From Prorocentrum cordatum (Eukaryota), in assembly GCA_963575745.1 (NCBI GenBank), contig CAUYUJ010000220.1:1-64000 (forward strand): a stretch of DNA of 64,000 nucleotides, written 5' to 3'. The position numbers were made by a program, and so were the translations under genes. Each line of letters begins with the position of its first letter. Within the stretch, counting starts at the first letter, position 1. Of the stretch, positions 7,713-48,141 are shown piece by piece. The notes under the pieces are model-generated. The model was not told where the DNA came from, searched no databases, and saw nothing but the letters and a program-made list of their open reading frames with translations.

Positions 7713-7753
<41 letters not shown>

Positions 7754-18732: not shown

Positions 18733-18766
<34 letters not shown>

Positions 18767-27058: not shown

Positions 27059-28004
27059 ATCGGCCGTGCCCCGCACGGGCGCTGCCGCAAACCCGAACCA
27101 AAAAACATGATACGTAGTGATCGGATGGGGGGGAGATGAGAAGAGCAGGATTGGCGCCACCGCACCGCATCTGACGCCTTACCATTTCCATACCTCCCAT
27201 GTGTCCCAGGGCTTCTGCCTACCCTTTATCCAACTTAAACGGGCCATCACAAACAATGCCTGAAACCGTGATCTGCATCCTGGGTGGGCCAGCTACCAGA
27301 CCTCGCGATAACTCAGACCAGGCAGACCCCTATAATACAATACACCTTACATGCCAAATACAATCAAGCGGCCCAGTCGCGGCGCCCAACACGCCCAACC
27401 AACTCAGAATGTGATGTGGCAAGCATCCAGAAGTAGCAAAGCGGATCTCGAAACGCGTGACATACCAAGCTGGCATTGCATCGCATAAACACATGCACCC
27501 GACCCGCCTGATGCACCCAACCCTCTCTTTTCCCTTTAAAAGAAATTGGCTAAGGGCTCAGTGCGCAGGGCTCGAGGTTCCGAGTTTCGAGCTGATGGCT
27601 TAAGGGCCCACCTCGGGGCTCAAGGCATGTTGATCTGGGTCGTGGGCACCAGGCTCAGGGCACATGGCATATCAATGAGAGCTTCGGGCTGAGGCCAAGG
27701 GCTATGGGCAGAGTGCAAGGAGGGGTGGTGTCTTCGGGCCGAGGGGTCCAAGTTGACGGATTGAAGCTCAAGGCAGAGGGCTGACGGCCTCGGGCCCATG
27801 CGCAGGGGCACCCGCTGCAAGCTTGAGGAAAGAAGCTGGGGGCTGAAGGCCATGGACTGGAGGCTTCGGGCTCGGTGCCGAGGGCGCAGGGCCTACGGCC
27901 AGGGGATCGGGGCGTTCTTATCCGCGGCCCACGGCTCCCAGAGAGAAGAGGAGGAGGGGGGCGAGGAGAGGGGAGAGCGAGAGAAGCGTTTTGAATCGGC
28001 CAGC

Positions 28005-28109
28005 CTGGAGAGGCACCTCGCCCGCGCCAGCGTTGGCCAAGTAGAGGCTCTCCTCGTCCGTGACGGGGAACATCTCCTGTAGCATGAGGCCGTGCGGCGA
28101 GAGCTTGAC
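28005..28109 (-). CDS. Gene B exon 2 (VKLSPHGLMLQEMF...GEVPLQ)
   Basis: Acceptor gaag|GTC, donor CAG|GC; 35 codons, phase 0. Confidence 0.55.
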
Positions 28110-29138
28110 CTTCGAAATCCAACTAGCCCTAAACCTGGACAAGGCACCCCGCGAGGCGCTGGAGCGGCCAAGATTGTCCAAGACGGCGCCGAGAAAGCCT
28201 CGAGGAATGCAAGATGGCCTCCCATATGGTTCAAGAGAGCGCAATATCGCTTAAGACGGCTATGCTCCAAGGTCCCCCAATACCCCATCCAAGATGCGTC
28301 CATGAGCCCTCGAAGGCCCCTGAGAATACACCCAATACACCAAAACCTTTCAACGAAGTGCAAAACATGGCTGGTTATGGCATCATCGCCACGGTCTTCT
28401 AACGACCATTTCACGCCTGACAATTGCCCCGAGCTGGCCCGAGAGCGCGGCGATATAAGGGGGCCACGTGAGCCCCAAGACGGCCTCAAGATAGCCCAAG
28501 AGCGCTCCAAGAGTCCCCGCCCACGAGCACCCCAGATTATGAAAATCCCCGAGGGGAGGGGGGAGGTACTTGAAGCCCCCCACATTCTCTGATAAAGCCA
28601 CCCCCATTTAAAACTGCCCCAAGAACGCCCACGGGCCCCCGAGAGCGCCAAACGAGGGCCCCAGGAGGCGCCCAGGCGGCCCCAACAGGCGCCAAAGACT
28701 TGAGGCTCCCAAGGGGCTCACCCACCCAAAGAAGCCGCAAGAGGAAGGCACTCCAGACGCTCGAGGGCGCCCCTGGACCCGCCTAGAGCCCCGGCCCCAG
28801 ACGCCCCCATAAGCCTACTCCACACAGCTTCCAAGATACACCCGAGATGACCCGACAGGCATTCAAGAGGCATGTGGACCCATTGCTTGCCCTTCTCATC
28901 CCCGTCCTGCTCCTCATTATCCTGCTTCTCATCCTCTTTCTCCGCATCCTTCTCCTCCGCGTCGCCCTTTTCATAAATGTCCCCCCCCCGCCCGCGTAAT
29001 CCATCCATCCAACCTCCTCCTTATCCTCCTCCATCCTTCGCACGGCTCGGATGCCCCCGCATTTGCCCCCGCACTCCCCTGATCACCCCCGCTCCCCTGG
29101 CCACCTCAACTCCTCCCGATGGCGGTGATACGCGAAGC

Positions 29139-32100
29139 GCCACGAATCTGAAACCACTTCGGCACGTCGACGCCGAAGTCCACGAGCTGGTCCTCGTCGT
29201 CGCCGCCGTCGAAATCAGGAATCCAAGAAATTCTGATGATGATCTTGCCGCCCACGAACAAAGAACGGTCCTGGGCACTCTGCGGCTTGAACAACTCCTT
29301 GCAAATCACAAACAATCTGTTGCGGGCTCGGCACAGCGCGAGGCCCTCCGCGCCGCAGAGGCACACGCCTGCCTCATAGCACTTGCTCGGGGAGTCGCTG
29401 GGCACGTTGTCGGGCGCCTCGATGCCAGGCAATACTCGGCATAAGTGATTCCACTGTGCGATGGCAGCCGCTCCGAAGGCAGAGGTCTTGCTGCCGCCAA
29501 GCTGCAGCGCCGAACAAGCCCGCGCTGCCAGCGCCGACGCGCCCCCAGCGTCGCGCTCCAGGATGCGGGCGCCGAGGGCGGGCGGTAGCGCGCGAAGCCA
29601 CGATGCGACGGCCTCAACTCTCGGCGCAACAGCGGTCAGCTCCGAGACGTACTCGGCCGTGTGCTCGGAGCTAAACTTCTCGACGGCGTCCCTGTCTGCG
29701 ATATCCTGGGACTTGTCCTGCTGCCGTAGGTGTTGCACCACTGACCTGGCATGGCGCATGGTGTCGTCGAGGCCCCTGCCAGCGGCCGCGGACTCATCCA
29801 ATACCCGATCGATGGCGTCGTGGCGGTCGGCCTGCCCGAACCGAACCAACGCGCATTCCATGACCCGCCGTTCCTGGAACTTCCTCAGCTCCCTTGCAGC
29901 GGGCCCGAACGCTGGCAGTCCTTCGCGCACCCTCTCCTTCGCCTGGTTGCCCTCATGCTCGAACACCTGCCGCTCCTCTGGAGTGAGTGCGCGGTAAGCG
30001 GCGCCCATCGCCCTGAGGTCGTTGTTCTTGGACATGTGCAGGAATGCCCTCCATGCGCCCCCGAACCCTCGATGGTTTCGCTGCTCGGGCGGCCCCGCGG
30101 CCACCTCGCCTGCAGAGGAAGCTGCGCCGCCACTCGCGCGGCTGAGGCCCTCCTTCAGCTGTCCGCTCAAATCGTCCGCGCTCAGATCCGTCATATTCAT
30201 TTTGTGCGTTTGAACTCTCCTGCTGATGACCCGCCGCAAGTACGCATTGTGGCACTCGTTCTGGACGATATTCGTTTGCAGTAAAAGCGCCATTGCAAGT
30301 AATTCCATTGTGTACTCAATACTGCCGACGCGGCACCGAGACCGCAGCTCCCGAGTCCACGGGTCAAGCGAGCATTCTGGATCGCCTGCCATGCTATCGG
30401 CGAGCTCGGGCTGCACTAACAACAAGAAATTCTTGGTGGGGTACCTCTCCGCGGGCTCGATGAGAAGCGACTGCACCGACGCCCCTGCTATCGACAACGA
30501 GATGAAGATCTGCGACCGAAGCGCATTTGTTAAATCATGAGGTGGAAGCAGGGCCCACATCACATGATTTTGCATCATGAAAACAAGCCGTCTCAGCGCC
30601 TCACTCTCGATCACCATACTGGCAACTACTGAGGCCCTAAACTCTCGATTGATGCCGCCAGGGTTTGACTGTGCCGCCCTGGCTGCCTTGGCCCGCTGCT
30701 CGCGCTCCCATCGGAGAGACGTGAGGTGAGTTTGCTTGTTGAGCATTGTTTGCAGAGCGTGCAGAACATTCCGAACTACCACAATGCCGCTGCGGGCGCT
30801 TGGGCCCTCCATGCCGAGAAACGACAGCGAGTTCGAGAGTGCCCTGGCCATTTTTTTGGCTCGCTCCCTCTCGCGGTCAACCTCGCCACGAGCGTCCGCG
30901 GAGTTGGGGTCGCATGGCTCCTCGGCAACGTCTGCAACGGGCCGCAGCACCTGCCAGTTGAACGCAGGGGCAGGGTCTAAGTCGAAAGGGCTCGTGGCTG
31001 GAGCCCGTTTCCGCGCCTGCAGCAGCAGCGTGAGGAGGCACATCGCAGGCTTCATAACTCCACAAACCATCACGGGCAATCCTATGTCGCAGATGGCGCC
31101 CTCGACTCGTGTCCAGCGAGCCCTGTTCAAGACGGAGAAGCATTTCGAACACAAGCCCTGCACGATGCCGTCGGCGAGCTCGTCCTTATATCGCTCAGGA
31201 TGCTGAACCGCCTGATCCAACCAGACGTCCATGCGCGACTCCTGGAGCCAGTCGCCGTTCGGGAGAAGCCGAAGCAGTACGCGGCGCCGAAGAGAGTGCT
31301 GATCACCAGGAATGAAAGCACGCAACACCATCATGTGGTAGAGCACCATCTCCCTCGTTGGTTTCCCAATTCGCAGGCGCAGCATCTTCCGCACAACTAT
31401 GTACAAGCAGTCGCGGAAGTCTACGAACATGCCCGCTGTGTTGAAGAACAAGCCAGTGTGCAACACCCCCCGCACGACCCACTCGAACGGCACGCAAGCC
31501 TCACCGTGAATCGTGAACGTCTTGTGGGCAACGCACTTCCACACCAAGATGCCCCACGCAGCTTGTTCGGCCCTGAGTCTAAGAATCTCCCGCTCCGCTG
31601 CGTCATTGCTGGGGTGGCGATCGGAGTCTGCTGCCCCTGTCCTGGCCTCGAAAAAATTGTCAGACATAGGAGTGGCATCGTTTTCCAACAAAGCTTGCGC
31701 AATACACTGGGCAGAATTCGCCCTGAGCGCTTGGTTCACGGTCGTAGACCCCCCAATCAGAATCGTAAAACGCTCGTCACCGCCTCTCCTGAACGACGCG
31801 ATGTACGCAAAGTGGCTCCGAATGTGGAACAGCTTCGTGACGTTCACCTGACTCTCGTACCCCAAGTGGCCCCTCAAAAACGGCAGGTATACTTGCAAGT
31901 TGCTCGTCGCAGGAACCATCGCATTCGATTGTTGCTGCGAAGGGTGGCGTTTGCGCCTGTCTGTTGTCTTCAAGAGCTGTGGTGTCTCGTCGTAGCTGTT
32001 GTGGTCGATAACTGCTCTAGCGCGAACTCCAGAGTCTGGCGTCCTGGCAAGCTGCACAACGGCTTCTGATAAAACTTGTCGAAAAACCCTGTCGGCGTTC

Positions 32101-32468
32101 CACTGCAAGCTGGCGAACTTATAGTTATTCCTGTCGAAGCCCTTCCTACTCACATCCAACGCTTCAGCTCTAGCATTTTTGCCCAAGTGGGGGGTCAGGT
32201 TGAGGAAAAACTCGCTGGCGTGGTCATCCACGTCGTGCTCGCCGACGCCAGCCGCCACAGCCAGCAAAGCACGGGTTGGTTGCGATAGGGGAGAGCTTGT
32301 GAACATCAGCCGCGGCAGCGTGATATCCTGCGAAACTTGTCTGCTGATCCTTCCAGCTTCGGCCGCCTGGGTGGGCAGCGCGAGCTGGGCGCCCTCATCG
32401 CGCCGACGTCGTTCGGCCCGAGCCTTCGCCCGAGCTACCTGCAACTCTTGAGGCGTTAAGCGGGGCAC
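29139..32468 (-). CDS. Gene B exon 1: DDE/CxxH transposase-like protein with an HMG-box-like segment
   Basis: 1120-codon ORF with ordered motifs SYDETP, DSDRHPSN, WKCVAH, RARWT and NECHNA, then GGAWRAFL...MGAAYRALTPEERQVF (HMG-like) and CYEAGVCLC. Start is GTG; start and donor positions are uncertain. Confidence 0.8.
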
Positions 32469-32515
32469 CGGCCGAAACTATTGCGATCGTTGCGAGACGA
32501 TCCAAAGCGAAAGAA

Positions 32516-32537
32516 TTTGAGCCAACATGGTTACGGA
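32516..32537 (-). other. Relic dinoflagellate spliced leader
   Basis: TCCGTAACCATGTTGGCTCAAA, 19/22 match to DCCGTAGCCATTTTGGCTCAAG, ~47 nt 5' of gene B. Confidence 0.85.
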
Positions 32538-33599
32538 ATCGTGCTTACGAAGGCGTGATAACCTAGGCTTTGTGATAGAAGTGGCCCTTCGCTGGCGTCG
32601 GGTCGCATTCGCCCCCCTTGCAATCCGACGGGGGGGAAAGGAGGAAGGGAACAGGGGAGAGCAGTAGTAAAGGGATAACAATATTTGACGACAGCGCCAT
32701 CTCTCGACGGCCACCCCTGGACCTGACGGCAAAGACCCCCGCCCCTGGCAGAAAACAACGGGCGCTTGCATGAATGGGCAAGGATAGCTGCATCATCGGA
32801 CGAGGACGCGACGCTGCAGCAAAAGATGTCTCCCCTGCGTTACTTCGCGCCACCCGAATGAATTGTCGACGCAACCGATCCTCATCGATCTCCGCATTAT
32901 TATCCTCCTCTGGGGAGTTTGTATCACTTCTCCATCTGCTCCTCCTGCTGCTGGCGGCCCTACTACTCATCATACTATTTCTCCTCCCTCTTGTCCCCCT
33001 ATACTCCTACTTCTCGGCATCCTCGTATTCCTCCTCCTCCTCGTCGACTTTGACCTCCCTCAACCTCGCCTTTATCATTATCCTTGTCCCCTTTCTCCTT
33101 CTCTACAAACGCTACAAAAGTCGAGGGAATCCAAGCCGCCAGGAAAGCAATCTTAAACAGCGCCGAAACACAAAAACCTAAACATTTGAAAAACATCTGT
33201 TAGGCATTCGTTACGTGTGAAGACACGCCAACGCTGCGGGGACATCTGGAGGACATTTGGGGTGGATATGCGCACCCCTCAATGTCTAGCCTGCTCGCCC
33301 CTTGCGGTGCAAGGGCCCTGGAAGGCCATGTCGACACACTTTGAACGGGGCGCGGCCAGTGGAAGCAGCCAAGATGGACCGAATGAGGCAAGGATGCAAG
33401 GGCAGCCTCGGAAGGTGCTCATCCTTGGGGCACACGCAATGACATACACATGGGAACCCTCGGGTCCGCGCGGGTTCCTCGGATCTGCGCTGGGCGCCGC
33501 TGTCAGCGTGGACCGCCGAGCGATTCTGCTTATGTCTTGCTTGCTCTTACTATGCGCATTGACTGTAACAGATCACTCTCTGCAGAGCGAGAAAAGCCG

Positions 33600-36500
33600 G
33601 CAGTAGGCGCAGGGCACGGGTGCGCTCCTGCTGCGACGGCCTCGTCGGCCAGCAGGTGGCCGGCGTGGTCGGCAAGCCGCGTCTCCAAGGGTTTAGGGAA
33701 GGCCAAACGCACCCCCAGGACAGCGCACCACCAGTGAGGTGTCGCAGCGACTACGGTTCCAGCCACGGTGGGCGCCAAAACGCAACAGTTTGGCGCCCCG
33801 AAGTGGGCCATGAACCCTCTCCATGATGCGTCTGCTCTGGGGTACGTTTGCGCTGCCCTGAGGGGTGGACCCTCCTGCTTGGGCACGTGGGTTTTCGTGG
33901 GCTTTGACTTTCCAGATGTTAAGCACCTGGGATCCAAGGCTGTCGAAGTCCTCCAAGAGTCCCTGGAAGATCCTAGAGGAGTGAGCCCAGGCCGACTTGC
34001 GGCGCCCCGTCCCCCCGCTGCAAGACCTTACAGACAACGGCGAAATCTGAACCCGTGGACACGCAAAAGAGCGGGAATGGGTTGCGCGGGGAATTGCGGG
34101 GGAGCGATCCGCGCGCGCTAATCGTGACAGCCATGATGACAGCGCAAACGATATCGGGCAATGGCTCGATGAGCAAACCAACGACGCTGGCGTTGACGCG
34201 GTCCTCTGGCGAGACTGGCGGAGCGGCAATTTAAGCGACGGCCCGCCCGGCAACGACTCGTCCGGGGTCTCGTCCTCGACATCCGCGCCGCCAACGTGCA
34301 CTGGGGGCCCTTCGACGACGCCAAGCCCTCAATGCTTCGCGATATGTTCCATGGCTGGCTGGGCAAAATCAGGAAGCGGCACGGGCCGCGCACGGCGCCC
34401 GACCAAAAGCTGGGCCTCGGAGATATCTCGTCGCCCCGCCAACGCGACTTCTCGGGCAAGGTCGGTCCGGGGCTCAGCGCGCCGCGCACGCGCGTGCACG
34501 AGCTCGCCGCGGACCTCGCACATCAGGCTGGCCGCGCCGGCAGTATGCCCGATCGCGCGCCTGCGAGCCACGCGCCGCTGCCCATCGAGAACGGGCGACC
34601 CCCGCCGGCGGCGTACAAACCAGTGCCGACCTTCCACGGCTTGGTCTACCAGCGTGCAAAAGGCGCGCGCACAGAGCTCAGCAGGATCCACTTGCGGGCC
34701 TGTCTAAGACCGTCAGACTGGAAACTGACGCAACGCTCGGCCCGCGCGCGCGCTGGGGTCACCGCCAAAGCGCCCCCTGGGCCCACCGCTAGGGACTACG
34801 ACCCAGGCCTGCGCCGAGTCTCCCGTGCTCGGCCGGCGGGGGGGCCCCGCGGGCGAGCGTCGGCGCCGCGGGGCCGAAACCGCGGATTCAGCAAGGGCCC
34901 CGGAGGTCGGGGGCGCGGGATAGATTTGGCCACGGCCCTGCAGCATGAGGGCCAGTGCGCGCGACTTCCCCGCCGCGAGGGACTGCCGCGCCATGGGGGC
35001 GATGACGCGGCCGACGGAAAGCCGCTGAGTAGTCGCGCCAGCGCGGACCACGTCGCGGGGTGCAAGCCCCCCTGAGCGATTCGCTGGGTCGCGCGGGCCT
35101 GCGCCCCGCTGCTACGAGAGGCGCAGATCTCGGAACGCTCGGGCCCCTCGCCCCCAGGGGCCGACCGCTCGCGTCGGCGGCCTGGGCCGCTGGCTGGCAG
35201 AAGATCGACGCAGAAATGCCCCGTCGGCGAGCTCGCCGCCACCCTCCCATGCGGCGCTCGGCGCCGGCGAATGCCCGCGCCCCGACGTCCGGGAGACCGG
35301 CTAGAAACGGCATCCCTCTGAATGGATCGGCGCTGCTCGCCCAGCGAATCGGGCAGGGCGCGCGACAACTGGGCGAGCTCGCTCGCGACGCGATTAATTC
35401 GGCCTTCCCTCTGGCGGGCAAGAATATCCATGGCCGCCGCAGCCAGGGGGCAAGGCCGCGGTCGCGGCGCGTCGTCCAGGGGTGGAAAGATGAGAGGGTG
35501 CGCGAGGATGGTGGCGTGGCCGTGCCCGGGGAGGGCAGCCAGGCGCGCGCTCGCAGGGCCGGGCGCTGCTTCGCGCGCGGCAAGGCGCCTCGAAGCCCTG
35601 CGCGGCTGGGCGCGCGATTCCAACTGCCAAGACGGAAACCGCGCGCGCCGCGGCATCTAGCATGCGCTCGCGCCGAATAATCTCCAATACATGGGAAGAT
35701 CCCAAGGGCATCGACGCTGAAATCGATGCTGCGAGAATCGTCTGGCGGAGCAACGAGGCGAGCGATTCGCTGCAGTCCGACTGCTGTCGCGCGGCGCGAT
35801 TGCGCGCCCTGCCCCTGCTGGCGCAGAAAGCACAACGTCTGGAGCGCCCCCCCTCCCTGGCGACGCGGGCCGATCGGCGCGGGCGAGCTTGGGGCCCGAG
35901 CGCCAGGGGCAATTGCAGCAATCGCCCCGAGTACGTCGCGGCGTTTGGAGGAAGGCAATATCAGGGCGGGCCGTCGGCCAGTCGGCGTGGGCATCGCGCG
36001 CGACAGCTGAATTAACGGACGCCCCGGCGCCTGGGCCATCGATTGCACGCAGCGGACGAGGCCTCGGGCTACTGGGTGAACAGCCAGCGCGAGCCTTCAT
36101 CATTGCGAAAACCCCCCGCGCGGCCCCGACGCTGGACCTGGCCCCCGCGTCACCTTGCCCGACAGCCCAGGCCCCCGACATCGCCCCTTCGCCAGGGCCG
36201 GCTATTCTTCCTGAGTCGCTTCTGGGCGGCCCCGAGGCCCGGCGACGGCTCCCGGAGGCCGAAAGTAGCGATGGACATCCGTCAAGTTGTTTCCCTGCCC
36301 AGGGCGGGGCCCAGTCGCGCGTTGCCGCGCGCCCTGCGGCCGGCAACTTCAGCGCGCCCGGGGCGCGGCGGAACCCGCGCGCGCATGCGACAGAAACGCC
36401 TGCAGCGCCCTGCTGTCAGACCTCAGGCAATCCGAGGACGCCATGTTCACAGCCCCGCGCGCTTCAATGTCGGCGCCGGCAGTGCCTTCGAAGTTCGCGC

Positions 36501-37100
36501 GATAGAGCATCCGACGAACAGAGCGCAAACAAGTGGCGTCAATGCGCGCAACTCGCGCATCTTCAACGACCTGACGCACGCATTGAATATCAACTTCGAC
36601 AGGATGAGGCTTCGACGCAGGGAGGAACGCAAGGACAGCTGCAAGCCGCTTTTGCCGAACACTTTCGTTGCTGCCATGGCGCTTGTACTCCGAAACGACG
36701 CGCGGGAACGCATTGCCCCCTGGCACGCGCGTGCCGCGCCCGGCTTCAGTTCGCGACCTCTCATGGAACTTCGTTGCGTGATTGCCGCGGAACTTGGCGA
36801 ATCCCCCCCCCCTCCTCCCCCTCCGCCTCGATCTCCTCTTCCCCCCCCCCCCGGCATCTTCGCGCCCCCCCCCCCCCCCCGCCCCCCCCGCTCAGGTCGG
36901 GCGAAAGGAGGGGGGGGATCTGCCGCTTCCAGCTGATCAAAAAGCCGATGGGCAACGACCGCAGCAATTGCCGTGGCGGCGCAGCCCGGGCCAGACGCGC
37001 GGGCCACGGGCCGCGCTCGGGCGCGCGCGCCTCGACGCGGCTCGGATGCCCTTCGAAGCCGCGAGGCGCATTGAAAGCCCACGGCGCGGGAGACAAATGG
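33600..37100 (+). pseudogene. Possible decayed coding region of unknown origin
   Basis: Microsatellite-poor stretch with protein-like fragments in shifting + frames (e.g. MLRDMFHGWLGKIRKR, RIFNDLTHALNINFDR); no recognisable family. Confidence 0.3.
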
Positions 37101-39829
37101 CAGATCGGGGATGGTCAGAACCCTCTTTAATAAGACACGGCTAAGTGAAAACGACCTCGGGCCTCCACCTGGCGGGCGCTAGCCGGGGGAATGACGGCCG
37201 CGGCGCCCTCTCGAGAGCCGAAAACGGACAGCTCACTTATCGGCGCGCCAGGGCGGGGGTTCTGCCCGCCCCCGAGCAGACTAGCGGCGCCGCGCAGCGG
37301 GCGGCGAAGCCCCGGGTGGAAAATGCGCCGAGGCTTGAGCAATCGGGGCCTTCGCAGCAATCGCGTCGCTGGCCTGCCGCGAGCGCGTCGCCGGGGGCGA
37401 TCTGAATTGCGCCGAGCAGTTGCGATCCAGACAGTGCGGCGAGAGGTCCCCAGGCATCGCCGATTACGATTCACCGCGTTGCTGCACCGACGACGCGCGG
37501 ATAGAAGCGGTCAGGCCGTTGGCGGATCGCCGATGCCAGACGCTCTCCGCGTCGCCTCGCAATCGCTGCGGCCGGGGCGTAAATGCGACCTCCGCGCGCC
37601 CCGCGGGGGCCCGAATGCAAGTGGCGTTCTCGGTATCTTTCGCAGAGTGAACGAGAGGCTTGGCTCGGCGATCGCCCGGGGAGAGCATGGCGGGCGGGCG
37701 AAGCCCGGCGGGCGTGCCGGGCAGAGCGCGCGCGAGTGTCCGCCGACGTGGGGCCCCCCAACGAATACATGAACAATCAAATTTTGCGACGGCGAAGCTG
37801 CGCTTGAGCTCGGGGAAACAGCGCGCCCCCCCTCGAGCGAGGGGCCCCGTGCTCTTCGAGCGCTTCGGGCTGGAGGTTTAAAGCCCGCTGGAGGATGAAG
37901 ACGCGCGCGGCTGCGGTTCGCAGGCGCTGCGCTGAGAGGCCGAGCGCGCCGCGCTGGTTGAACTCGTCGAGCCCGCCGCCCGCCTCGAGGTCGACGCCGG
38001 CTAGCGAAGCGACCGTCCAGCGCGCCCGGGCTCGAGCGGACCGCGGCGCGGACTGCGCTGGGCCACCGCGCGCCGCTTCGCGCGCGGCGAGCCCGCGACC
38101 TTCGAGCATCGCGTGGACGCGACCCCCCCCCAGCCCAAGCAGCCCGGCGCGGTATTCTAGCGGCGCTTCCAATGCGAAGCAGCCATGTCGAGGCGATTGG
38201 AACTCGGCCGCGACGCGCCGATCAGGTCGCGCAGTTCGCCGCGATGCCGGCCTACCTGCCCCCATTAGGCCCCGGTGGGCCTCCGCGGCAGTGGGCTGCT
38301 CCGACTGCGCGAACTCGCCTGGCGACGCGCCAATCACTGACGCCCTGTCCTTCTTGCTGCGCTGCAGCAAATCCACGGGCGCGCGGTGCAAGCGTAAACT
38401 TGAATTGCTCCATTGGGGGATCGGCCGGCGTGGCGTCGTTGAGCGCCGGCGATGACTGGCGCAACGTCGGCACCGCGCTGTCCGACAGATTCCGCCGGCT
38501 CCACGTTGTCATGCTTTTAGCGCCCTGCTGGCTGCGTTTCCGCAGCGCCATTGGCGCGCCGCGGCCGCGGGGGCGGCGCCCGCCGGCGGCCGGGCCGCCG
38601 CGGCGGGGGGCGGCGGCCATGGGGGCCGCGCTGGGGGGCGCGGCGGGCGGCGTCGCCTGTTGAGCCCGCGCTCAAGCGACGTCTCGGCCGCCCGCGTCGG
38701 CAGCCGCCGCGGCGGCGGTTCTGCGGCGAGGTCGTCCTGCGCCAGGGCACGAGCTAGACGATGTTTTTCGTTATCGCTTGGTCTTCGCATGCCTTCGCCC
38801 CATCTTCGCGCGGCCGTTGCTGCGAAGCGAAATCAAAGCGGCAGCGGTCCACGAAATTGCAAAACGCAGATTATCTCGAGCCCTGCCCCGCAGCCTTGCA
38901 GGCGGCCGCCAGGGCTCGCGGGGGGCTCCCTTGACGGGGGCAGCGGCCGCAGGCTTGGGCGGATCAGCGCCAGGTCTGTCGGCGCTCGTCGAAGTCGGCC
39001 CGGGCGGCCCTGGGGCCCTCGGCTAGCCGCGCGCAGCCAGGCGCGCGATAAAGAAACGTATGATTCAAAAAGCGTGGGGCCTGGGTCAGCGCCCCGCGAG
39101 CCTCTCAAAGCAAGCCTGGGCCAACTTCTGCTGTTGACGCTGAAAGGGCCAACGCGATGCAAAGAACTGGGTCAGCTTTCTGGAAGGTTGGTCAAGACAC
39201 CCTGTCCCAACCTTTCGCGACTTCGGGGCCGCGGCCTCCAGCGCGAGCTGCAGCGCGCCCTCCTTCGCGGCAGCGGCCTGCTCCGCCGCCGCCGCGGCCG
39301 AGCAGCCGCGGGGGGCGCGCGGGTACAGCGAGTTGCAGCATCGGCAACCACCAGAAGAGGTTACGACTAGACAAAGTGGAAGAAGAAGGGATGGGAGGGG
39401 GAACAGAGGAATGCACGCATCGCTGTGACTGCGCAAGTCATCTACAGCTGCCGTGTAAAATGGCGCACGGACGACGCCCGTTGCCGCCGGGGCCGGGCCC
39501 GCTGGCGGCGCGCAGACCTGCCCCTCGGAGACCCGCGCGCATAAGAAAGTAAACGCTTGAAAGTGAATCTGCACCGCGGCCAGCAATGCATTGTGCGCTT
39601 TCTTCCGGCTGGGAAGAAGCACCTGAAAATGCGGTATCGCCGAAACTTTCTGCAGCGCGCTCGCGTCGCTCACCCTAGATATACATGCCGAGGCATGCCT
39701 GAAATGCGCCCCAGAATCCCGCGGTGAAAAGCGCCCGAGGGGGGCGCGCTCAGCCTTGATCACCTGTGGGGAATACACAGAATACAAGAGCAAGCTCAAA
39801 CAACGCTGTCGTAATTATTGCCTCTCGTT

Positions 39830-41830
39830 TCAATCGAATTGAAGAGCGCGACCACAATTGATCAAGTTTCTTTGACGTTTTCGCTGCTTCCCCTCACCTT
39901 CTGGGCACTTTGTTGTGGCTTTGCCATCGCGCGTGGCCAAATCCCCCAAGCGCATTGCGTCGCGCACGGTCTTGATGTCGCTTCCATCTGGTCTTGCAAC
40001 TCGCGCGCAGGTCGAAATCTGCATCTGCGCCGCGCTGCCGCAATTCAATTCCAAGCCGCGTGCGCGCCCTTCTTCCACGCTCGTTTTAAGCGTGGCCTGA
40101 ATATTCGCTCGATGTCGAGGTGCTAATAATGCGTCGCGCGCATGGAGAATGCCCTGGGGCACCGCATAGCCAGGTTCGGGGTCGAGGACCGCACCGTGCA
40201 ACGTGATCGTCTCTACTGCGATGAATAAGTACGGTGACAGCGGGCATCCTCGTGAACTCCCGGCGTCCTGGGGCCTCTCCGTGGAGCTTCCGGCGTGGTC
40301 AAGGATAATGGAGAGACGCGCGGAGGATATGGAACGCATCACGTCGACGATGTCACTGGGTAATCCAAGTCGGCGTAAAGCTTTGCACATGGCCTCCGGT
40401 TCAAATCCGTCGAAAGCTTTCGCCCAATCCAACATAAAAAACCACAATCCCACCACTTTTGTTGACGTGCGCGGCATCAATCATGCGCCTCACAAGCATG
40501 AGGGCGTCCGCGGCGCCGCGCCCAGGCCGGAACCCATATTGCGAGTTACGCATGCGTTCTGATCCACCTTAAAGTAACCTTTGGCGCATGAGTGCAGCCA
40601 GAATTGTATATCCCGCCGAAAGCAAAGAAATTTGACGACAATTCTCTGGGAGGGTAGTTTTTCTTGAGTGATAAAACTACTTTCGGTCTGTTCCAACGAG
40701 GGAGGATTCTCCTTCCTAGTCCAGCGTTGTCGGCATACTCGCAATCAAACGCTGGTTGCGCCACTATCACACATCAAAGCTTCCCAAGCATCTGATGATC
40801 TTTAGTTCCGTAACACATTGTAACGCTCATAGATAGTGAGATCGTGTGTGCGGACAGGTAGAACATCACCAATTTGTTGAGTTTGACATTATGGCTGGAA
40901 TTTTGGATGTCGCAATTGCCATTGCCTTGTTTCGAAATAGTCAGCCATGACATTTGCGCGTTCTGCAGTATCTGACCGTGTTCCATTTGGCTTTCTGATA
41001 GCAGCATGTTTGACACTTCTGGGTTTGCGCAAATAACGAATCACGTCCCATGCACCTCCACCAAGATATATTTCCAACCAAGTGTTCTGGTCTTGCTTGC
41101 CACATTTGCGGGTCATCGTGTTTACTGCTCGTTCTGATGTTGAATCACCCGTTTGACGATGCACCCTCCGTTTTTTTTTTTTTTTTTTTTTTTTTTTCAA
41201 GAAGATCAAGAGTACGCTGGCTTGTCCAAGTGCGTTTTGGCGGGGCTGTTTTGCCGGGTAGCGCGCACGCTGCTTGTTGGAAGGCTTGTTCAACATCATC
41301 TGCTGCTTCATCGGGTGTGGAGGTTTCGTATTCAGAGCGGGCGGCGGCACATGCGGGCAGATGATACCGTCCTCCCCAGTTCTGACGTGGCGGGTCGCCA
41401 GATTGAACGGACGAGATCTTAAAATTGATGATAAAACGAATGCCTCGTGCCAACATGTACTCTATTGAGATGGGCATATGCAGATATAAGCGCGAGAACA
41501 CCACCATGCGTCTTCAAGCGCAGTGTCGCAAGACGATCGCCGTTCGCAACGCTGACCGCATTCGCGGAAAAACAATGAAAGCTACACCTGCCCATGATCT
41601 TGTTTCCTTGTTGACTTCCCCTGGCAGGAACACAAAACAACCATCGTGGGTGAAATATTCGGCTCCATTGAAAGGTTTTTCCGGAATGCTGAAAACGTCC
41701 AAATTGCGCTCGCACATCAGATTGTACAAAATTCAACGTAATTCACAAAATAATCATCTCGGAGACCCTGAACGCTCCATGTGCCCAGGCGCTGCAAACT
41801 GTGAGGCTGGCAACCCCGCCTCGGCCGGCC
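39830..41830 (-). mobile_element. Degenerate non-LTR retrotransposon (LINE), APE endonuclease plus reverse transcriptase
   Basis: Frameshifted fragments: LGTWSVQGL, GVAFIV, LISAYAH (APE); WTSQRTLDLL, ANVMADYF; LDWAKAFD and G..RGCPLSPYLF (RT motifs). Confidence 0.85.
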
Positions 41831-42265
41831 CCAAGAAAATGTCGCAAGAGAAGCCGAATACGTAGAAGACGAAGAACAAGAAGAGGAATGAATCTTTGAT
41901 TCATGCTGAGACCGGCCGCGTAGAGGACGTAGGGGTACCGGGTGTCGTGCAGAAGGATGTTGCAGGGAGGGTGAAACGACCACTGGTCGCTGAACGACGG
42001 TAGCTTTGCCCAAATTCGCCGCGACTGTAGCGGCAACTTTGCCCGCGGTGGCGGCAGAGAGGTGCTCAAGTGACTCTCTGGCACGGCAGAATGGCAATCT
42101 TTCAGGCCAGGCTGCGGGGGCCCGGGTCCGGCCGTGTTTCCTTTTGGCCTTTAGATGTGCCTTTGGCCGTGCCTTTCATTGAAGGGGCCCTGGGACACAC
42201 AAATAAATACACACAAATAAAACGATTCCCCATAGCCTTTGGCCGTGCCTTTCATACCCTGGGTG

Positions 42266-42443
42266 CAGTCGGGGCGTGGACCTAAGGAACCCTAAACAGG
42301 GAACGAGGCCCCTCTTTTCCACAAGTGGAACTTCGACTTCCCGTCGAGGGCACGGGGGAAACCTGGGGCAAGCCGTGAAACACTTATAAGGAACACCGAG
42401 CCCCTACCCAACGAAAAGGGCTCCCTCCTCCGCGCCCCGACGG
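42266..42443 (+). mobile_element. MITE family A, diverged copy
   Basis: cagtcggggc...gccccgacgg with the same internal sequence; TA flanks lost. Confidence 0.8.
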
Positions 42444-42559
42444 TCACCCGGCGACGGCCTGCTGCATGGGAAAAACCTCCTTCGCGCACGTCCTCCCGCG
42501 GCGCAGGCGATACAGGCTCGAACACCAGCACCGTCCGTGGCGAGCCGAGCGGCTTTCTC

Positions 42560-42737
42560 TCAACGGGCGAAGAACGATATAAAATAAACTTTTTCGCTGT
42601 CGGGGGCGCCTGCCCCAGGGCGGCTGGAAAGTTTATACCCCTACAGTGCCACCGTAAGGGTATAAACTTTCCAGCCGCCCTGAGGCAGGTGTCCCCGACG
42701 GCGAAAAAAATAGTTCATACCGTTCTTCGCCCGTTAA
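42560..42737. mobile_element. Fold-back (full-length hairpin) element with a 5-bp TTCTC duplication
   Basis: Arms aacgggcgaagaacg...agggcggctggaaagtttataccc and gggtataaactttccagccgccct...cgttcttcgcccgtt; TTCTC at 42555-42559 and 42738-42742. Confidence 0.85.
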
Positions 42738-43261
42738 TTCTCGTCTGCCTGCGCCTTGCGACCGCGGTCGGCCTGCCCGCGCCGTTTGCGGCCCCGCCGT
42801 CGCCTCCGCCCCAGACGCCTGAAGGCTGCCGATGGCTTCGGGGATCTGCTGACCCAGATCGATCGAGACCCGGGCCAGTCGGCCTTATGCAAGATCCAGC
42901 AACATTCTGCAGGATCCTGCGCGCAGACCCGTGTGAGTGCACCCCTGGCCCTGTAGGATCCTGGCTGACCCCCGTTGGAACGGACCCCCGTCTCAAGGCC
43001 CTCGACGGGTCAAGGGTGCTGCCGCACCGGGACAAGGATTGAGGGCGCGGCGCCGCTGCCTGGCACACCCAGCCTTGCTCCTCCAGCGTGGAGGCCGTGC
43101 GCGGCGCAAGACCATCCCATCACGACACAATGAACATCAGGGGATACAATATGAAAGGTATCGCATCGAGTCCTGCCAATGGCGTAGCTGCAGCACGGGA
43201 ACTGTTTGGGCCGGGAACTCCCCACGCCACGGTCCCAAGCCCCTTGAGGAATGCCTCCAGA

Positions 43262-43283
43262 CTTGAGCCAAAGTGGCTGCGAA
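43262..43283 (-). other. Relic dinoflagellate spliced leader
   Basis: TTCGCAGCCACTTTGGCTCAAG, 19/22 match. Confidence 0.8.
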
Positions 43284-44204
43284 CTTCCCCTCCCCCTCCT
43301 CCTGCCGCTCCTTCTCCCCTTCCTCCTCCCACACATACCATCCCCTGGCCGTGTCCTGGGGCGCAGCCTTAACAAAAAGTTCAAGCGGACCCAGCTGTGG
43401 CGACAAGGGTGCCCAACTGTTCAAGAACAACTACCGCTATACTGTAGATTCGCCTCTCCTCCGACCGTATGGGGAGGGTGCGAAGTCCCTGTGTGCGGGA
43501 CGGAGTGGGCAGGGAGAGACACCCAAGGTCTCCCAACCTTCGAGGCCCTGGCACCATACGCGCGCCCGACACTTTCGGGGGAGGCATCATACGCCTCCCC
43601 GGCAACTCTGCGCCAGACGCAACAAAACAAAATCGGGGCCACACCATCATGGATGAAGGATGCATGGGTCTAGTGCGCGGTCGCCAGATCCATGGATCGG
43701 GGAAGGCGCTCCCGAGAAATTGCGCCCGTGCTGCCCGATTTGGCGGCTGCGCCCGCCGATTCTGCATGAAAACGGGGCCCGTCGCCAATACAAGCGACTC
43801 AATCCATGTTTGCGAGTCCTTGAAATAATTGGATGCGTTCCTTGAGTTCGGGGTCTCCTCCTCCTCCACCGGCCCAGACGTCTCCGCGGAGGGCTCCCGA
43901 GGCCGCTGGGGCGCCACCAGACAGAAGCCCCCTGGTTGCCCTCTGAAGCCCTGGTCCCTCCGGAAACGGAACGACGGAGCTAAGCACGTGCAGGAGGCCA
44001 TCCTCGATCCTCGTTTCGGCGTCGCCTCAACCCCTCTCAACGATCAAGATCAAAGGAAGGTAAGGAGAAAAGAAAGGCAGGCTCAGCAGAAGGAAGGCCG
44101 CGCCTGCGCGTGCTTGACCCACCCACCACTCCGCCCCCCCCCGTAACCAGGGGCATCCTAGATCCTCGCCCACTCGCCTCATCCCTCATCTTCCCCCCCG
44201 CTGC

Positions 44205-44405
44205 CCACACATATGAGGCAGGTGCCGATGATCACCTTCGGCTGCAGCCTCTCCTGCAGGAACGCCACCGAGAAGGCCACGACCATGATGGTGTTCAGCT
44301 TCCCGAGGATCTGCATGGAGGCCCCGCCGATCTGCTTGATGACGAACATGCCGAGGAGGTTCAGGGCGCACGCGCTCACGCAGGTGGCCAGCACCAGAAG
44401 CGACG
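44205..44405 (-). CDS. TPT/SLC35E-type transporter exon 7
   Basis: SLLVLATCVSACALNLLGMFVIKQIGGASMQILGKLNTIMVVAFSVAFLQE...GTCLICV, typical C-terminal TM helices of the TPT family; final exon not located. Confidence 0.8.
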
Positions 44406-45099
44406 CTGGAGAGGCGAAGAAGGGAGGGCGCCCCGCCATACGCTTTTTGGCCGAAGGGCTGGGCAAGAGGGAGGGGGAAGGAGGGGGGGGAAGCGAGATA
44501 CGGCAGGTTCGTGCGGCGATGACTTCCACGTTTGTTGCTGATACCGCGTGGATCGTTCACACTTGAACCATCGCGTCTTCCCGATTCCCGATAACGCAGA
44601 TCGTTCGATATCGGCCGGTTCCGGGCCACTGGCGGCGTCAAACCAGGAACGCCCGTGCCGGTGTCGCCACCGCGGCAACGCGGCGCGAACCTACCGGAGG
44701 GGGAGGGGGTTGGGAGTCGATCAGGGGAACGTGCCTGGGTCGTGTGCCAGAAGCCGCGCGGACGTATCATTGGGTCTTTGGCAGTCTCTCAGAGCACGGA
44801 TGGGGGCCTCTTGGGGGTCTCCTCTGGGAGCTTCCCCAGGGCGTCCTGGGGCCTCTTGGGGGCAGAGATCAGTGGGGGAGCGGGAGAAGCAGCGGAGAAT
44901 GGGTAGAGTCAGGGAGCGTTACTGGTCGCCCGCAGCCGAAGGGAGGGTGGGCCGAAGGCGATGCCCTCTCTTGGCCGCGCCACGACGTGGGATCGAGAGC
45001 GCGGACCTCCTAGCTCTTCATGTGGTTGCCATTTTTTGTTCCCTGGGTCAGGAGGGCCTCGAGGGGTACTGGCAGCGCACCTCGCTTTCATCCTCCCTG

Positions 45100-45302
45100 G
45101 ATGTCCCGACATGCAACGCTCTGGCGAACGCGAAGAAGTCCTCGGTTGCCACGGCGTAGATGACCGAGATCACGACGCACGGGAGGCCTTGCAGCGCCCA
45201 GACGTGCATGGGATCCACTGGCATGGCCGCCTGCAGCGGTTGCTTCTCGCTACCCTCGCGGGCGTACGCGGTGGGGTTCAGGAGGTTGTCCTGCAGCACC
45301 AC
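45100..45302 (-). CDS. TPT transporter exon 6
   Basis: ctcag|GTG start; VVLQDNLL...PMHVWALQGLPC...ATE; donor position uncertain. Confidence 0.75.
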
Positions 45303-45447
45303 CTGAGACAGGCTCGCCCCCTCCGAATACTTATCAGAGCATGTCGCCCTCAATGGAGGGATGTATGAACAATGCCTGTTCTCGGGACTGGTAATGTTCC
45401 ACAAATCCTTCTTTGGTGCGACCATGCCTGGGGTGTACTCCTAGAAG

Positions 45448-45593
45448 CCTCCGTGTCGGAATAGATGGGGTTGGAGAATCGTGCCGCATCGTCGGTGTAT
45501 CGGCGCCGTCGTGACGCAGAAACCGCATCAACAATGCATCGGCGATGCGGCTCGATCCTCCGACCCCGTCCACTCCGGCCCTCTTTGGTGAGG
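45448..45593. mobile_element. MITE family B, diverged intronic copy
   Basis: tcggaatagatggggttggagaatcgtgccgcatc...gatgcggctcgatcctccgacccc. Confidence 0.65.
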
Positions 45594-45907
45594 TCGCCGA
45601 ATGTCGCGCACCGCCCTTGGAGCGACGCGCGGTTGATCTTGGTGCCCTCGCCCCGCCCCCCGGAGAAGGGCAGATCTCAAGCCCAGGCCGCGACGCGCGA
45701 TGGGCGATGACTTTCGCGCCAAGCGAGATGGTGTAGCGATCTTACGTGGTGGCTTACGCGGGCTGCCCGCGCGGCACGCCACGTTTGAAGCGAGGGCGCT
45801 TACGCGCGACCTTACGCGGGCAACTTGCGCGCCAATGTCGGCGCAGACGACCCCGTTTTGTGGCGTCGCTCATTTGGGAGGCCAGGAAATTGGACGGGCC
45901 CCGCTGC

Positions 45908-46192
45908 CTTGATGGAGCGAAGCAGGACGGACGCCAGGGAAAAGAGCAGCCCAAAGGCCACCGCGCCGCCCGCATGCCCGTGGCCCAGCTTGCCCCAGGC
46001 AATCACGCCGGCTCCTACGCAGGCCATGCCGACGCCAACCCAAGCGAACTTCGCAACTTTCCTGCCCATGAGGTTAGCAAGAGCTGCGGTGGTCACCGGG
46101 GAGAGCGTTGCCACGATGGAGTTCAGACCAGCGCCGAGATAGATCAGCGCAGTGTTGTTGAAGACAACGGACAGCGGAAGGCTAAGAGCGAT
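45908..46192 (-). CDS. TPT transporter exon 5
   Basis: IALSLPLSVVFNNTALIYLGAGLNSIVATLSPVTTA...SVLLRSIK; donor AAG|GC. Confidence 0.85.
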
Positions 46193-46326
46193 AGTGGGGA
46201 GCAGAAAAAACAAACGCCTACTCTCGAAGCCCTTTCCAAGCTCTTGCCCACCGCATGTCTTCGTCCTCTCCCCTCCCCTCCCACCCTTTCTGCAAGTAGG
46301 TGCTTTTCTGCTCAGCTCCCCCAGCT
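46193..46326. mobile_element. Inverted-repeat-bounded insertion forming TPT intron 4
   Basis: Ends AG(C)TGGGG(G)AGC..AGAAAA..CCTACT are inverted; precise removal gives F-I-L-P|I-A-L. Confidence 0.65.
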
Positions 46327-46422
46327 GGGCAGGATGAAAGTGGTGTAGCGCGATGCCGAGCCCATGGAGGAGGGAAGCGCCTTGTGGGACTCGCCCTTCA
46401 CCAGCCAATACACCACACAGAC
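46327..46422 (-). CDS. TPT transporter exon 4
   Basis: ccgcag|GTC start; VCVVYWLVKGESHKALPSSMGSASRYTTFILP. Confidence 0.8.
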
Positions 46423-46560
46423 CTGCGGAGGACGCCAACAACACCTGCACCCACCTCGGCCGGGCCGATCCCGGGTCCCGGATCGGTGTGGGTGTCTGGC
46501 AGCCCCGTGTGAACTCCACCCCTGCAGGTCTAATCTCTGGAGCGCCAGCTGGGGTTCATA

Positions 46561-46736
46561 CAGTCGGGGCGTTGACCTAAGGAACCCTAGATAAGGAACG
46601 AGGCCCCGTTTTTCCATAAGTTAAACTTCGATTTCCGATCGGAAACATGAGGAAAACCTGAGGCAAGCTGTGAAACACTTAAGGAACGCGGAGCCCCTCC
46701 CCAACGAAAAGGGTTCCTTCTTCAGGGCCCCGACTG
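46561..46736 (+). mobile_element. MITE family A within TPT intron 3
   Basis: TA|CAGTCGGGGC...GCCCCGACTG|TA. Confidence 0.9.
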
Positions 46737-46862
46737 TAACCCGAACGATGTCTGCAACCGAGAAGACCCCCACGGGGGTGTCCGATAAGCCAGCGTCGAG
46801 CGGACCCGCAGGGGCGGGGTTCGCAATCGGCCGCAAGTGTAAAGCTGGCGCCCCGCGGGTAC

Positions 46863-46895
46863 CAGCCAGACGGTCGCGAAGTGCAGGACAGTCAC
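46863..46895 (-). CDS. TPT transporter exon 3 (33-nt micro-exon VTVLHFATVWL)
   Basis: ctaag|GTG...CTG|GT; completes the family motif YPGW-VTVLHF. Confidence 0.8.
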
Positions 46896-47081
46896 CTTAG
46901 CTGCCCCGCAACGCAACACGCAGAACGTAGCGTATTGTTACGGAGCTCAACACGTAGACTTAAAACGTGGGTATGACGCTACACGTTCGACAAAACGTCG
47001 GCCGACACGCTGAGCCAGCACGCAACGTATGGACACGGACGTTTTCAGCACAGTGAGAATGGCGTTTCAAAATATAGAGGG

Positions 47082-47280
47082 CTCCTAGATGGGGTCCGAT
47101 TAGGTGAAGTCGGGGGATCGCGCCGCATCGCCAATGCATCGGCGATGCATCGGCGACGTCGGCGACGTATCGACGACGTCGGCGGGGAGAAAATCGGGCT
47201 CGGCATCGAGCCGCATCGCCGATGCATCGGGGATGCTGCGCGATCCTCCGACCCCATCTACTCCGACCCCGTCTGGGAGG
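47082..47280. mobile_element. MITE family B within TPT intron 2
   Basis: ctcctagatggggtc...gaccccgtctgggagg with the cgatgcatcgg core. Confidence 0.8.
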
Positions 47281-47319
47281 CTGAGAAAACGGGCGTGTCG
47301 CGGCGGCTGAGACAGTCAC

Positions 47320-47446
47320 CCATCCAGGGTAGTTGAAGCTGAACGGCGCACTCGACAGCTCCTTCATCAGCAGCTGCGTGGAGACGAGAGAGCAGATGAG
47401 GCCGACCGTGCAGAAGGTGGCGGTCGGCCCGTGCGGCCGGAGTACG
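47320..47446 (-). CDS. TPT transporter exon 2
   Basis: VLRPHGPTATFCTVGLICSLVSTQLLMKELSSAPFSFNYPGW (K..L...F.YP motif); donor TGG|GT. Confidence 0.8.
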
Positions 47447-47891
47447 ATCGGCGGCGAGCGAGGGGGGGGCAATGAGAAGGAGAAGACCTTCTCGGAAGGC
47501 GGCGGGACTTCTCAAAAGCCTTCGGTGGCAACTCATGGGAGCCTCCCATACCATCTTGTCGGCTCTTGCGAATCGACGCTGGTTGACGCTAAATCGACGC
47601 TGATCGACGCTAATTCGGCGCTAATCGACGCTAACCGACGCTAAATCGGCGCTAGCTCATCGACTCCCGAACGCTACTCGACGCTAAGGACATAATTACG
47701 ACCATACACAAGGCTCCCATGATTTCCTACCGAAGGAGAAGGCCTTCTCAGAAGGCGGCGGGACTTCTCCGAAGACCTCTTGTGTGCGTTTTCGGGAGAA
47801 GCTTAGGAAGCTTCTCAGAAGGCCGGGGGACACTTCCGAGCCTTCTGAGAAGGCCTGCCCCTTTTTACTTCCCCCCGGGCTCGCCGCCGAT
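47447..47891. mobile_element. TIR-bounded insertion forming TPT intron 1
   Basis: Perfect 13-bp TIR ATCGGCGGCGAGC extending imperfectly to ~50 bp; contains an (AATCGACGCT)n array at ~47570-47690. Confidence 0.75.
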
Positions 47892-48049
47892 ATAAAGCAG
47901 ACCGCGCTGAACAGGGAGCCCACGATAACCACGGCGATCAACTTGCCAACGCCCTCGGTGAACTTGCTGGAGGCGGCAACCTGCAGCAGAGAGATCGATA
48001 GCACGTCTTCAACGGAGCTGGGCTCGAGCATGACGGCCGTGTGTGCCAT
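47892..48049 (-). CDS. TPT transporter exon 1
   Basis: ATG at 48049; MAHTAVML...LIAVVIVGSLFSAVCF; SL relic ~70 nt upstream. Confidence 0.65.
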
Positions 48050-48119
48050 TCGCCTGTCTGACCTCGGGGCGCTGTCCAGTGTCGTGGATTATGTATAGCT
48101 TGTCAAGGTGCCCCAAGGG

Positions 48120-48141
48120 CTTTAGCCAAATTGGCAACTGT
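48120..48141 (-). other. Relic dinoflagellate spliced leader
   Basis: ACAGTTGCCAATTTGGCTAAAG, 18/22 match, correctly oriented 5' of the TPT ATG. Confidence 0.7.

Follow-up and report, generated by a model that had tools for sequence, protein, structure and literature searches.

We analysed a 64,000-nucleotide (nt) stretch of DNA from the dinoflagellate Prorocentrum cordatum (contig CAUYUJ010000220.1 of assembly GCA_963575745.1, positions 1 to 64,000; hereafter the window). It contains on its minus strand, from 48139 to about 4545, an expressed gene for a predicted membrane transporter, which starts with a relic of the dinoflagellate spliced leader (SL) and consists of 8 exons and 7 introns. 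Three of the introns, I1, I3 and I5, offer no G[TCA]..AG ends in any register that their junctions allow. We favour, at a probability of roughly 0.6, the reading that these three are removed in the manner of the introner elements of Amoebophrya, while the canonical introns I2a and I6 are introner-like. The newer point would be the presence of Amoebophrya-type non-canonical introns in a free-living dinoflagellate; the lack of GY..AG ends in three introns had escaped an earlier interpretation of this DNA (the sequence-only reading).

Transcript-supported structure of the gene

RNA contigs of four runs from four studies, X1, X3, X11 and X12, were aligned to the locus; the records of X3 and X11 specify poly(A) RNA-Seq. 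All RNA data were assembled contigs, from which the source locus of a transcript is not distinguishable. One contig per run (4/4 runs) spanned all exon pieces with 0 other letters. The aligned pieces were 47891-48139, 47311-47442, a 26-nt piece, 46326-46420, 45907-46191, 45100-45301 and 44203-44401, connected by six joints that were identical in 4/4 runs. The contigs ran past 44203 with a 30-letter loose end (shown for X1 and X12) that is an exact match to 4822-4851, a stretch just behind a CAG acceptor. There is therefore a seventh junction, giving 8 exons and a last intron of 39,351 nt. The transcripts thus bear out the splice junctions, six by direct joints and the seventh by way of the loose ends. 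The end of the gene, which the sequence-only reading had placed at 44205, is refuted by them: the long intron follows there, and then the last exon at 4857. What had been taken for a single intron 2 is actually a pair of GT..AG introns, I2a and I2b, around a 33-nt micro-exon. The 19 listed RNA runs contained about one in four of the words sampled from 44100-48300, in agreement with the exon share of the region. The gene and its expression are solid. Its exons, all on the minus strand, are:

47891..48139, minus strand: exon 1, with the 5' untranslated region (UTR) at 48050-48139 and the ATG at 48049-48047; found in 4/4 runs with 0 other letters
47320..47442, minus strand: exon 2, from RNA contigs and the spliced model
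46863..46895, minus strand: exon 3, the 33-nt micro-exon coding for VTVLHFATVWL, from RNA-contig joints; the residues LHF.. stand at the same place in homologs
46326..46422, minus strand: exon 4, from RNA contigs
45908..46191, minus strand: exon 5, from RNA contigs
45100..45302, minus strand: exon 6, from RNA contigs
44209..44401, minus strand: exon 7, from RNA contigs
4545..4857, minus strand: exon 8, coding through the stop at 4755-4753; its 3' end near 4545 is taken from the extent of the RNA contigs only

The spliced model translates into 398 amino acids (aa) and is identical to the transcript-derived protein P0075. Against Pfam, P0075 scored 36.1 bits for EamA (cut-off 28.2) and 30.3 bits for TPT (cut-off 30). 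A six-frame translation had given pieces of open reading frames (ORFs) with weak EamA/TPT matches, and an exhaustive HMMER search with the largest of these pieces as query returned dinoflagellate-type homologs of 330-450 aa together with P0007 (244 aa, 97% identity). By these sequence matches the product is predicted to be an EamA/TPT-type membrane transporter of the DMT superfamily. A search of PDB sequences with P0075 gave 0 matches, and a scan of 43000-48600 against Rfam gave 0 families.

Introns without canonical ends

For each intron we enumerated all junction-compatible registers. I1, I3 and I5, together with the terminal inverted repeat (TIR) arms of I1, are as follows:

47443..47890, minus strand: I1, 448 nt, phase 0; ends TC..TA, AT..GT or TA..CG within a 2-nt TA slide
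47871..47891, minus strand: 5' TIR arm of I1, 21 nt, complementary to the 3' arm at 19/21 positions
47447..47467, minus strand: 3' TIR arm of I1, 21 nt; RNA contigs from other loci break here with unlike flanks
46192..46325, minus strand: I3, 134 nt, phase 1; ends GC..TA or AG..CT, direct repeat A (1 nt), imperfect terminal hairpin
44402..45099, minus strand: I5, 698 nt, phase 2; ends CA..TC, CC..GT or TC..CG, direct repeat TC (2 nt)

The I1 joint (47442>47891) as well as the I3 and I5 joints were present in 4/4 runs. With remainders of 1, 2 and 2 on division by three, the lengths of I1, I3 and I5 are not multiples of three, such that retention of any of them would break the reading frame. Their exact absence from poly(A) RNA restores a frame that is conserved in close relatives: those of 84-91% identity have preserved the residues across the three junctions (CFILRPHG, FILPIALSLP and GTSLLVLATC). 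The zero depth of RNA contigs inside I3 and I5 was not used as evidence.

Three other ways of placing the ends were rejected. A canonical version of I5 chosen by eye (GT donor GAG|GTGCGC, acceptor AAAAAG|) is contradicted by the RNA contigs, as is the GA..AG pair that the public gene model uses for I3. For a U12-type AT..AC intron, I1 offers AT..GT only.

The segment excised at I1 equals the TIR unit 47447-47891 plus 3 nt, i.e. the element plus one TA. RNA contigs that are 90-95% alike pile up on I1 and break, with unlike flanks, at 47448 (6 in X3, agreement 0.49) and at 47450. I1 is thus an insert derived from a miniature inverted-repeat transposable element (MITE) of a multi-copy family. MITEs of the Stowaway or Tc1-mariner type duplicate a TA target. 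The element of I1 would be a Stowaway-like MITE, given its 21-nt TIRs, its TA duplication and the other copies in the transcriptome, and it shares with this type its short, non-coding, TA-flanked and multi-copy nature. Several I1-like contigs skip 47469-47731; typical family members are therefore without this internal 263-nt part, and I1 is an expanded copy of its family. The expansion sets it apart from Stowaway-type MITEs. Inside I1, 21-nt tandem repeats (GCGTCGAT-type units) occupy 47568-47690 and are enclosed by an inner inverted repeat of 26 nt (47519-47544 / 47711-47736).

The terminal inverted repeats of the introns were scored against 500 shuffles and 500 random pairs of the same distance. 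The numbers of controls that reached the score of the intron were:

I1: 0/500 shuffles, 2/500 random pairs
I3: 3/500 shuffles, 13/500 random pairs
I2a (borderline): 19/500 shuffles, 45/500 random pairs
I2b: 83/500 shuffles, 64/500 random pairs
I4: 342/500 shuffles, 322/500 random pairs
I5: 138/500 shuffles, 128/500 random pairs
I6: 219/500 shuffles

Repeats above chance were hence absent from I2b, I4, I5 and I6. The sequence-only reading had described introns 1-4 as each bounded by inverted repeats; this holds clearly for I1 and weakly for I3, is borderline for I2a and does not hold for I2b and I4, which are at chance. In terms of RNA duplex stability I1 reached a z-score of -5.9, I3 of -1.1 and I5 of -1.5, and no other intron was stronger than about -1.5. 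The two arms of I1 differ by 2 mismatches, while the TIR of I3 is degenerate with a 10-nt exact core.

A precedent for such introns is found in Amoebophrya. According to the available text of Farhat et al. (2021, PMC7789003), the introns of Amoebophrya sp. A25 and A120 are without fixed ends, and part of them, termed introner elements, carry inverted repeats of 8-20 nt within about 30 nt of the ends as well as direct repeats of 3-5 nt; a loss of the U1 small nuclear RNA is also reported. I1, I3 and I5 equally lack fixed dinucleotide ends and, provided that the RNA comes from this locus, represent RNA-supported introns without GY..AG ends. Further likenesses to the introner elements of that text are the MITE-like character, seen in I1 along with further copies that may or may not be introns, a TIR hairpin by which the exon ends come to lie side by side, small direct repeats across the boundaries and the failure of standard gene predictors. 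Regarding the inverted repeats, I1 corresponds well (21 nt, only a few nt away from either end), I3 weakly and I5 not at all. Amoebophrya is a syndinean parasite, whereas the host here is a free-living, plastid-bearing dinoflagellate with a multi-gigabase genome.

In the favoured reading I1, I3 and I5 would behave like the non-canonical introner elements of Amoebophrya, i.e. as transposon hairpins within coding sequence that are cut from the RNA independently of GY..AG. Upon folding of the RNA the TIR stem of I1 would draw both exon ends together, and I3 would follow the same cut geometry with a weaker stem. As we read the two cases (n=2), the terminal stem starts directly at the 5' cut and stops 3-4 nt short of the 3' cut.

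Several observations weigh against this reading. All evidence comes from one gene. The direct repeats of I1, I3 and I5 (TA, A and TC) comprise only 2, 1 and 2 nt compared to 3-5 nt in the available description of Amoebophrya (PMC7789003). I5 is without a significant hairpin, considering that 138/500 shuffles reach its TIR score and that its duplex z-score is -1.5. For I3 and I5 no other copy was found in the window by BLASTN, nor in the RNA contigs. A real SL on the mRNA was not seen, with only 2-9 unmatched letters beyond 48139. The assembly amounts to 4.15 Gb (PMC10666404, as far as its available text goes) versus about 4.75 Gb in the preprint abstract. Finally, taking away the element plus one TA at I1 leaves precisely the sequence expected of an empty site.

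This last point leads to an explanation that needs no unusual splicing: the mRNA could stem from an identical copy or a strain variant without the insertions at I1, I3 and I5, such that the copy in the window would be a transposon-hit pseudogene and its odd introns plain DNA insertions. I1 indeed has the build and the TA duplication of a typical MITE, gene duplication is frequent in dinoflagellates, part of the genome is missing from the assembly (PMC10666404, available text), and contigs cannot tell which locus was transcribed. We nevertheless consider such a silent copy rather improbable. It would have taken up three frame-breaking insertions within about 1.2 kb of exons while, in 4/4 runs, it shows zero substitutions. 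The insertions do not look young, given the 2 mismatches in the TIR of I1, the degenerate TIR of I3 and the lack of one in I5, and the 1-nt and 2-nt repeats of I3 and I5 are unlike usual target duplications. Exons that match the RNA perfectly next to inserts that look aged favour splicing from this copy, and 0 exon-RNA differences together with the decayed repeats of I1 and I3 fit selection acting on it. The very contigs that lack the odd introns also splice out the canonical introns of this locus and reach an exon 39 kb away. Among proteins of 182-2000 aa at E <=1e-10 no insertion-free paralog was seen; the full-length 398-aa form came from transcript sources only, and the sole genome-derived NCBI entry was P0007, a faulty model of this very locus. 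The absence of a full-length genome-derived model from this collection favours splicing, as does the Amoebophrya precedent.

Canonical introns, spliced-leader relic and history of the gene

The remaining four introns have the usual GT/GC..AG ends of dinoflagellates:

46896..47319, minus strand: I2a, 424 nt, GT..AG, phase 0, with the 10-nt direct repeat GGTGACTGTC
46423..46862, minus strand: I2b, 440 nt, GT..AG, phase 0, direct repeat GGT (3 nt)
45303..45907, minus strand: I4, 605 nt, GC..AG, phase 0, direct repeat AGG (3 nt)
4858..44208, minus strand: I6, 39,351 nt, GT..AG, phase 0, with the 6-nt direct repeat GTGGGC

The direct repeats of I2b and I4 are of consensus level only. The repeat GGTGACTGTC of I2a resembles a target-site duplication (TSD) and provides the GT donor, while the AG is taken from the end of the element. 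Both the 10-nt repeat of I2a and the 6-nt repeat of I6 begin with the GT donor, so that in these two introns, as in introners, a splice site is supplied by the duplication. I2a carries an introner-type target duplication, and I6 probably does likewise. For both introns the sequence would be explained by insertion of an element with a target-site duplication that was recruited as splice site. According to the available text of Roy et al. (preprint 10.1101/2020.10.14.339549), the introners of Polarella and Symbiodinium always possess G[TCA]..AG ends, which are recruited from duplications of 3-8 nt. I2a agrees with the introners described there for Polarella glacialis and the Symbiodiniaceae in its GT-initial repeat of 9-10 nt at both ends and its AG from the element end, in particular with the GHN6-type classes, whose 5' splice site comes from the TSD, and I6 agrees in its 6-nt GT-initial repeat. 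I1, I3 and I5 differ from these introners in that they do not use G[TCA]..AG.

Copies were searched by BLASTN of the introns against the 64-kb window, combined with alignments. Two MITE families were found nested in the canonical introns:

47075..47281, no strand assigned: MITE B, palindromic with long TIRs, inside I2a; other copies at 60287-60495, 3894-4174 and 45455-45581 (shorter, inside I4), 4 copies in total
46559..46738, no strand assigned: MITE A, 180 nt with TA-CAGTCGGGGC ends, inside I2b; other copies at about 51032-51211 (within a match of 51032-51350), 58340-58519, 3058-3229 and 42266-42450

In 5 copies the ends of MITE A read TA-CAGTC...GACTG-TA, and like the element of I1 it resembles Stowaway-type MITEs in being short, non-coding, TIR-bearing and TA-flanked. 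The MITEs of I2a, I2b and I4 lie internally, away from the splice sites, and are therefore passengers rather than creators of these introns; they would have inserted later into introns that already existed. Outside of MITE B, I2a was without a second copy both in the RNA contigs and, by BLASTN, in the window, where neither I2a nor I6 had another copy that forms an intron. The view that transposons made the introns is thus upheld by the insertion signatures of I1 (a TIR element plus TA) and I2a (the 10-nt repeat) and fails where it relies on the internal MITEs of I2a, I2b and I4. That these transposons are unrelated is only partly right, since the same palindromic MITE B family sits inside I2a and I4.

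A copy of MITE A also takes part in a rearrangement about 4.7 kb upstream. There, 51032-51446 on the plus strand is an inverted duplicate of 46340-46738, comprising exon 4 (from 46340), the 3' part of I2b and MITE A, with 1 difference in the exon/intron part and about 20/180 in the MITE part. The duplicate starts directly behind the second MITE-A end, between repeated flanks, which suggests MITE-mediated repair or capture.

The 5' end of the gene was compared with the dinoflagellate SL consensus of 22 nt given in PMC5585692:

48120..48141, minus strand: SL relic within the 5' UTR, 18/22 against the 22-nt DinoSL consensus

Without the degenerate first base the score is 17/21, and 70 nt separate the end of the relic from the ATG at 48049. 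With up to 4 mismatches (<=4) the 21-nt SL core had 4 matches in the window, all on the minus strand (48120, 43262, 32516 and 25515), compared to a mean of 0.01 in 200 dinucleotide shuffles, of which 2/200 contained at least one match. RNA contigs carry the mutated letters of the relic up to 48139 with 0 differences, followed by 2-9 unmatched letters; the mRNA 5' end hence coincides with the genome-encoded relic. The SL relic, reported earlier at the same score and distance from the ATG, is real. Where a mature mRNA starts with a genome-encoded SL, it is accepted that this start derives from mRNA, and at least the 5' end of this gene would once have been part of an SL-capped mRNA that was turned back into DNA. 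The trans-splice acceptor in use today is probably the cAG at 48140-48138: contig 5' ends at 48139, inside the relic, fit trans-splicing at this site, which may have been created by a C-to-A change within the relic. The acceptor thus lies at relic positions 3-4, unlike in the SL-relic retrogene model, which uses the internal AG of the SL.

SL-relic retrogenes of dinoflagellates were reportedly described by Slamovits and Keeling in 2008. In the available text of Song et al. (2017, PMC5585692) such relics occur on about 23% of Symbiodinium genes, whose intron numbers are like those of other genes; retroposition of RNA before its splicing is also raised there. Our gene is alike in having a degenerate DinoSL less than 100 nt upstream of the start codon, whose letters stand at the beginning of the 5' UTR in the RNA contigs, and differs in having a single relic whose longest exact run is 7 nt. 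This run is below the 9-mer rule of Song et al., and the available text also suggests the TTT(T/G) part of relics as a promoter element, so that selection could keep such a motif. Both points could be taken to mean that the SL-like 22-mer arose by chance or has a function of its own rather than being a relic, and that the gene was never retroposed. We consider this highly improbable in view of the 17/21 match at a window expectation of 0.01, of 4 such matches on the strand of the gene, with two others about 40 nt before long ORFs, and of the position of the relic at the exact 5' end of the RNA contigs.

The combination of an SL relic with a normal intron number is not special, and a retrogene reading is ordinary for dinoflagellates. 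Retroposition of the whole gene followed by the gain of all seven introns would be a plausible history and belongs to a class that is already known. The sequence-only reading had gone further, with an intronless cDNA that integrated and every present intron later made by an independent transposon insertion. The SL relic at the mRNA 5' end and the insertion footprints on I1, I2a, I6 and perhaps I3 agree with this scenario, as does the very high introner-driven intron gain in dinoflagellates stated in the available text of Roy et al. (10.1101/2020.10.14.339549). A metagenome scan with a 5-sequence alignment added one locus (L001, on a contig of 46% GC) with a homolog of 40% identity that aligns to residues 29-355 in a single uninterrupted stretch. 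This homolog therefore has no intron at the six positions of I1 to I5, which fits gain here or loss there. It is just 40% identical and may itself have lost introns. We regard the full scenario as doubtful: I2b, I4 and I5 have no terminal repeat above chance and consensus-level direct repeats only, the multi-copy MITEs of I2a, I2b and I4 are internal passengers, SL-relic genes are as intron-rich as others with unspliced RNA as a proposed source (Song et al. 2017, PMC5585692, available text), and conversion by a cDNA could have been confined to the 5' end of the gene.

The last intron, the public gene model and wider meaning

The window is GC-rich (51-71% per 2-kb bin). Long (GGA)n microsatellites at 4540-4640 and 4925-5100 stand on either side of the last exon and 3' UTR. 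I6 contains three further SL relics (43262-43282, 32516-32536 and 25515-25535) and ORFs on the same strand:

7970-11656, minus strand: ORF of 1228 aa (P0074)
29106-32477, minus strand: ORF of 1123 aa
25473, minus strand: ATG-started ORF

The relics at 32516-32536 and 25515-25535 lie about 40 nt upstream of the 1123-aa ORF and the ATG-started ORF, respectively. A search with P0074 returned only the NCBI model P0081 of the same species, a paralog at 62%, and no transcript-derived protein. For the nested gene at 25473, a search with its first exon (P0080) against longer proteins gave no match. None of 9 long ORFs of the window matched a Pfam family, and a protein atlas search with P0073 returned no match above 0.84. 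The nested ORFs may be nested retrogenes or the cargo of a large mobile element. Between 40 and 42 kb I6 has a stretch of low GC (51%), in which a reverse-transcriptase-like peptide (GFRPGR...) was recognized by eye at 40401-40568 on the minus strand, and a poly(A)/poly(T) run lies near 41.2 kb; the stretch is probably a fragment of a long interspersed nuclear element.

The public model of the locus is P0007, an 'unnamed protein product [Prorocentrum cordatum]' of 244 aa. Part of exon 1, exons 2-3 and exons 7-8 are missing from it, and I3 is spliced wrongly. The odd junctions are replaced by forced GT..AG and GA..AG introns, and the model reads through into I5. P0007 is wrong, with 154/398 residues lost, and exemplifies the mis-modelling of such genes by a pipeline that allows only G[TCA]..AG. 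In the available text of the P. cordatum genome paper (PMC10666404) the aligners were modified for GC and GA donors only (GT/GC/GA allowed), inverted-repeat introner elements make up 2.4% of the annotated introns, the mean intron length is 4.7 kb and the genome GC content 59.7%.

A literature search, outside of which lay subscription journals and bioRxiv supplements, returned no report of introns without G[TCA]..AG ends in Prorocentrum, and Gozashti 2025 does not mention Prorocentrum. Whether Prorocentrum and other free-living core dinoflagellates have in common with Amoebophrya a removal of transposon-derived inserts from pre-mRNA that is blind to GY..AG and at least partly guided by terminal hairpins is in our view an evenly balanced question. 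The locus provides a compact test bed for it, uniting in one gene odd introns with a hairpin, with a weak hairpin and with none, along with canonical introns with and without insertion footprints.

If I1, I3 and I5 are spliced from this locus, hairpin removal is not peculiar to the parasitic Amoebophrya but occurs also in a bloom-forming, free-living dinoflagellate. Introns of this kind would be invisible to annotation that forces G[TCA]..AG ends, and many public gene models would be wrong, like the 244-aa model here. A MITE would be tolerated on landing in a coding exon and could immediately serve as an intron, its insertion being harmless from the start. The finding would thus bear on the birth of introns, on the machinery that cuts them out and on the quality of dinoflagellate gene catalogues.

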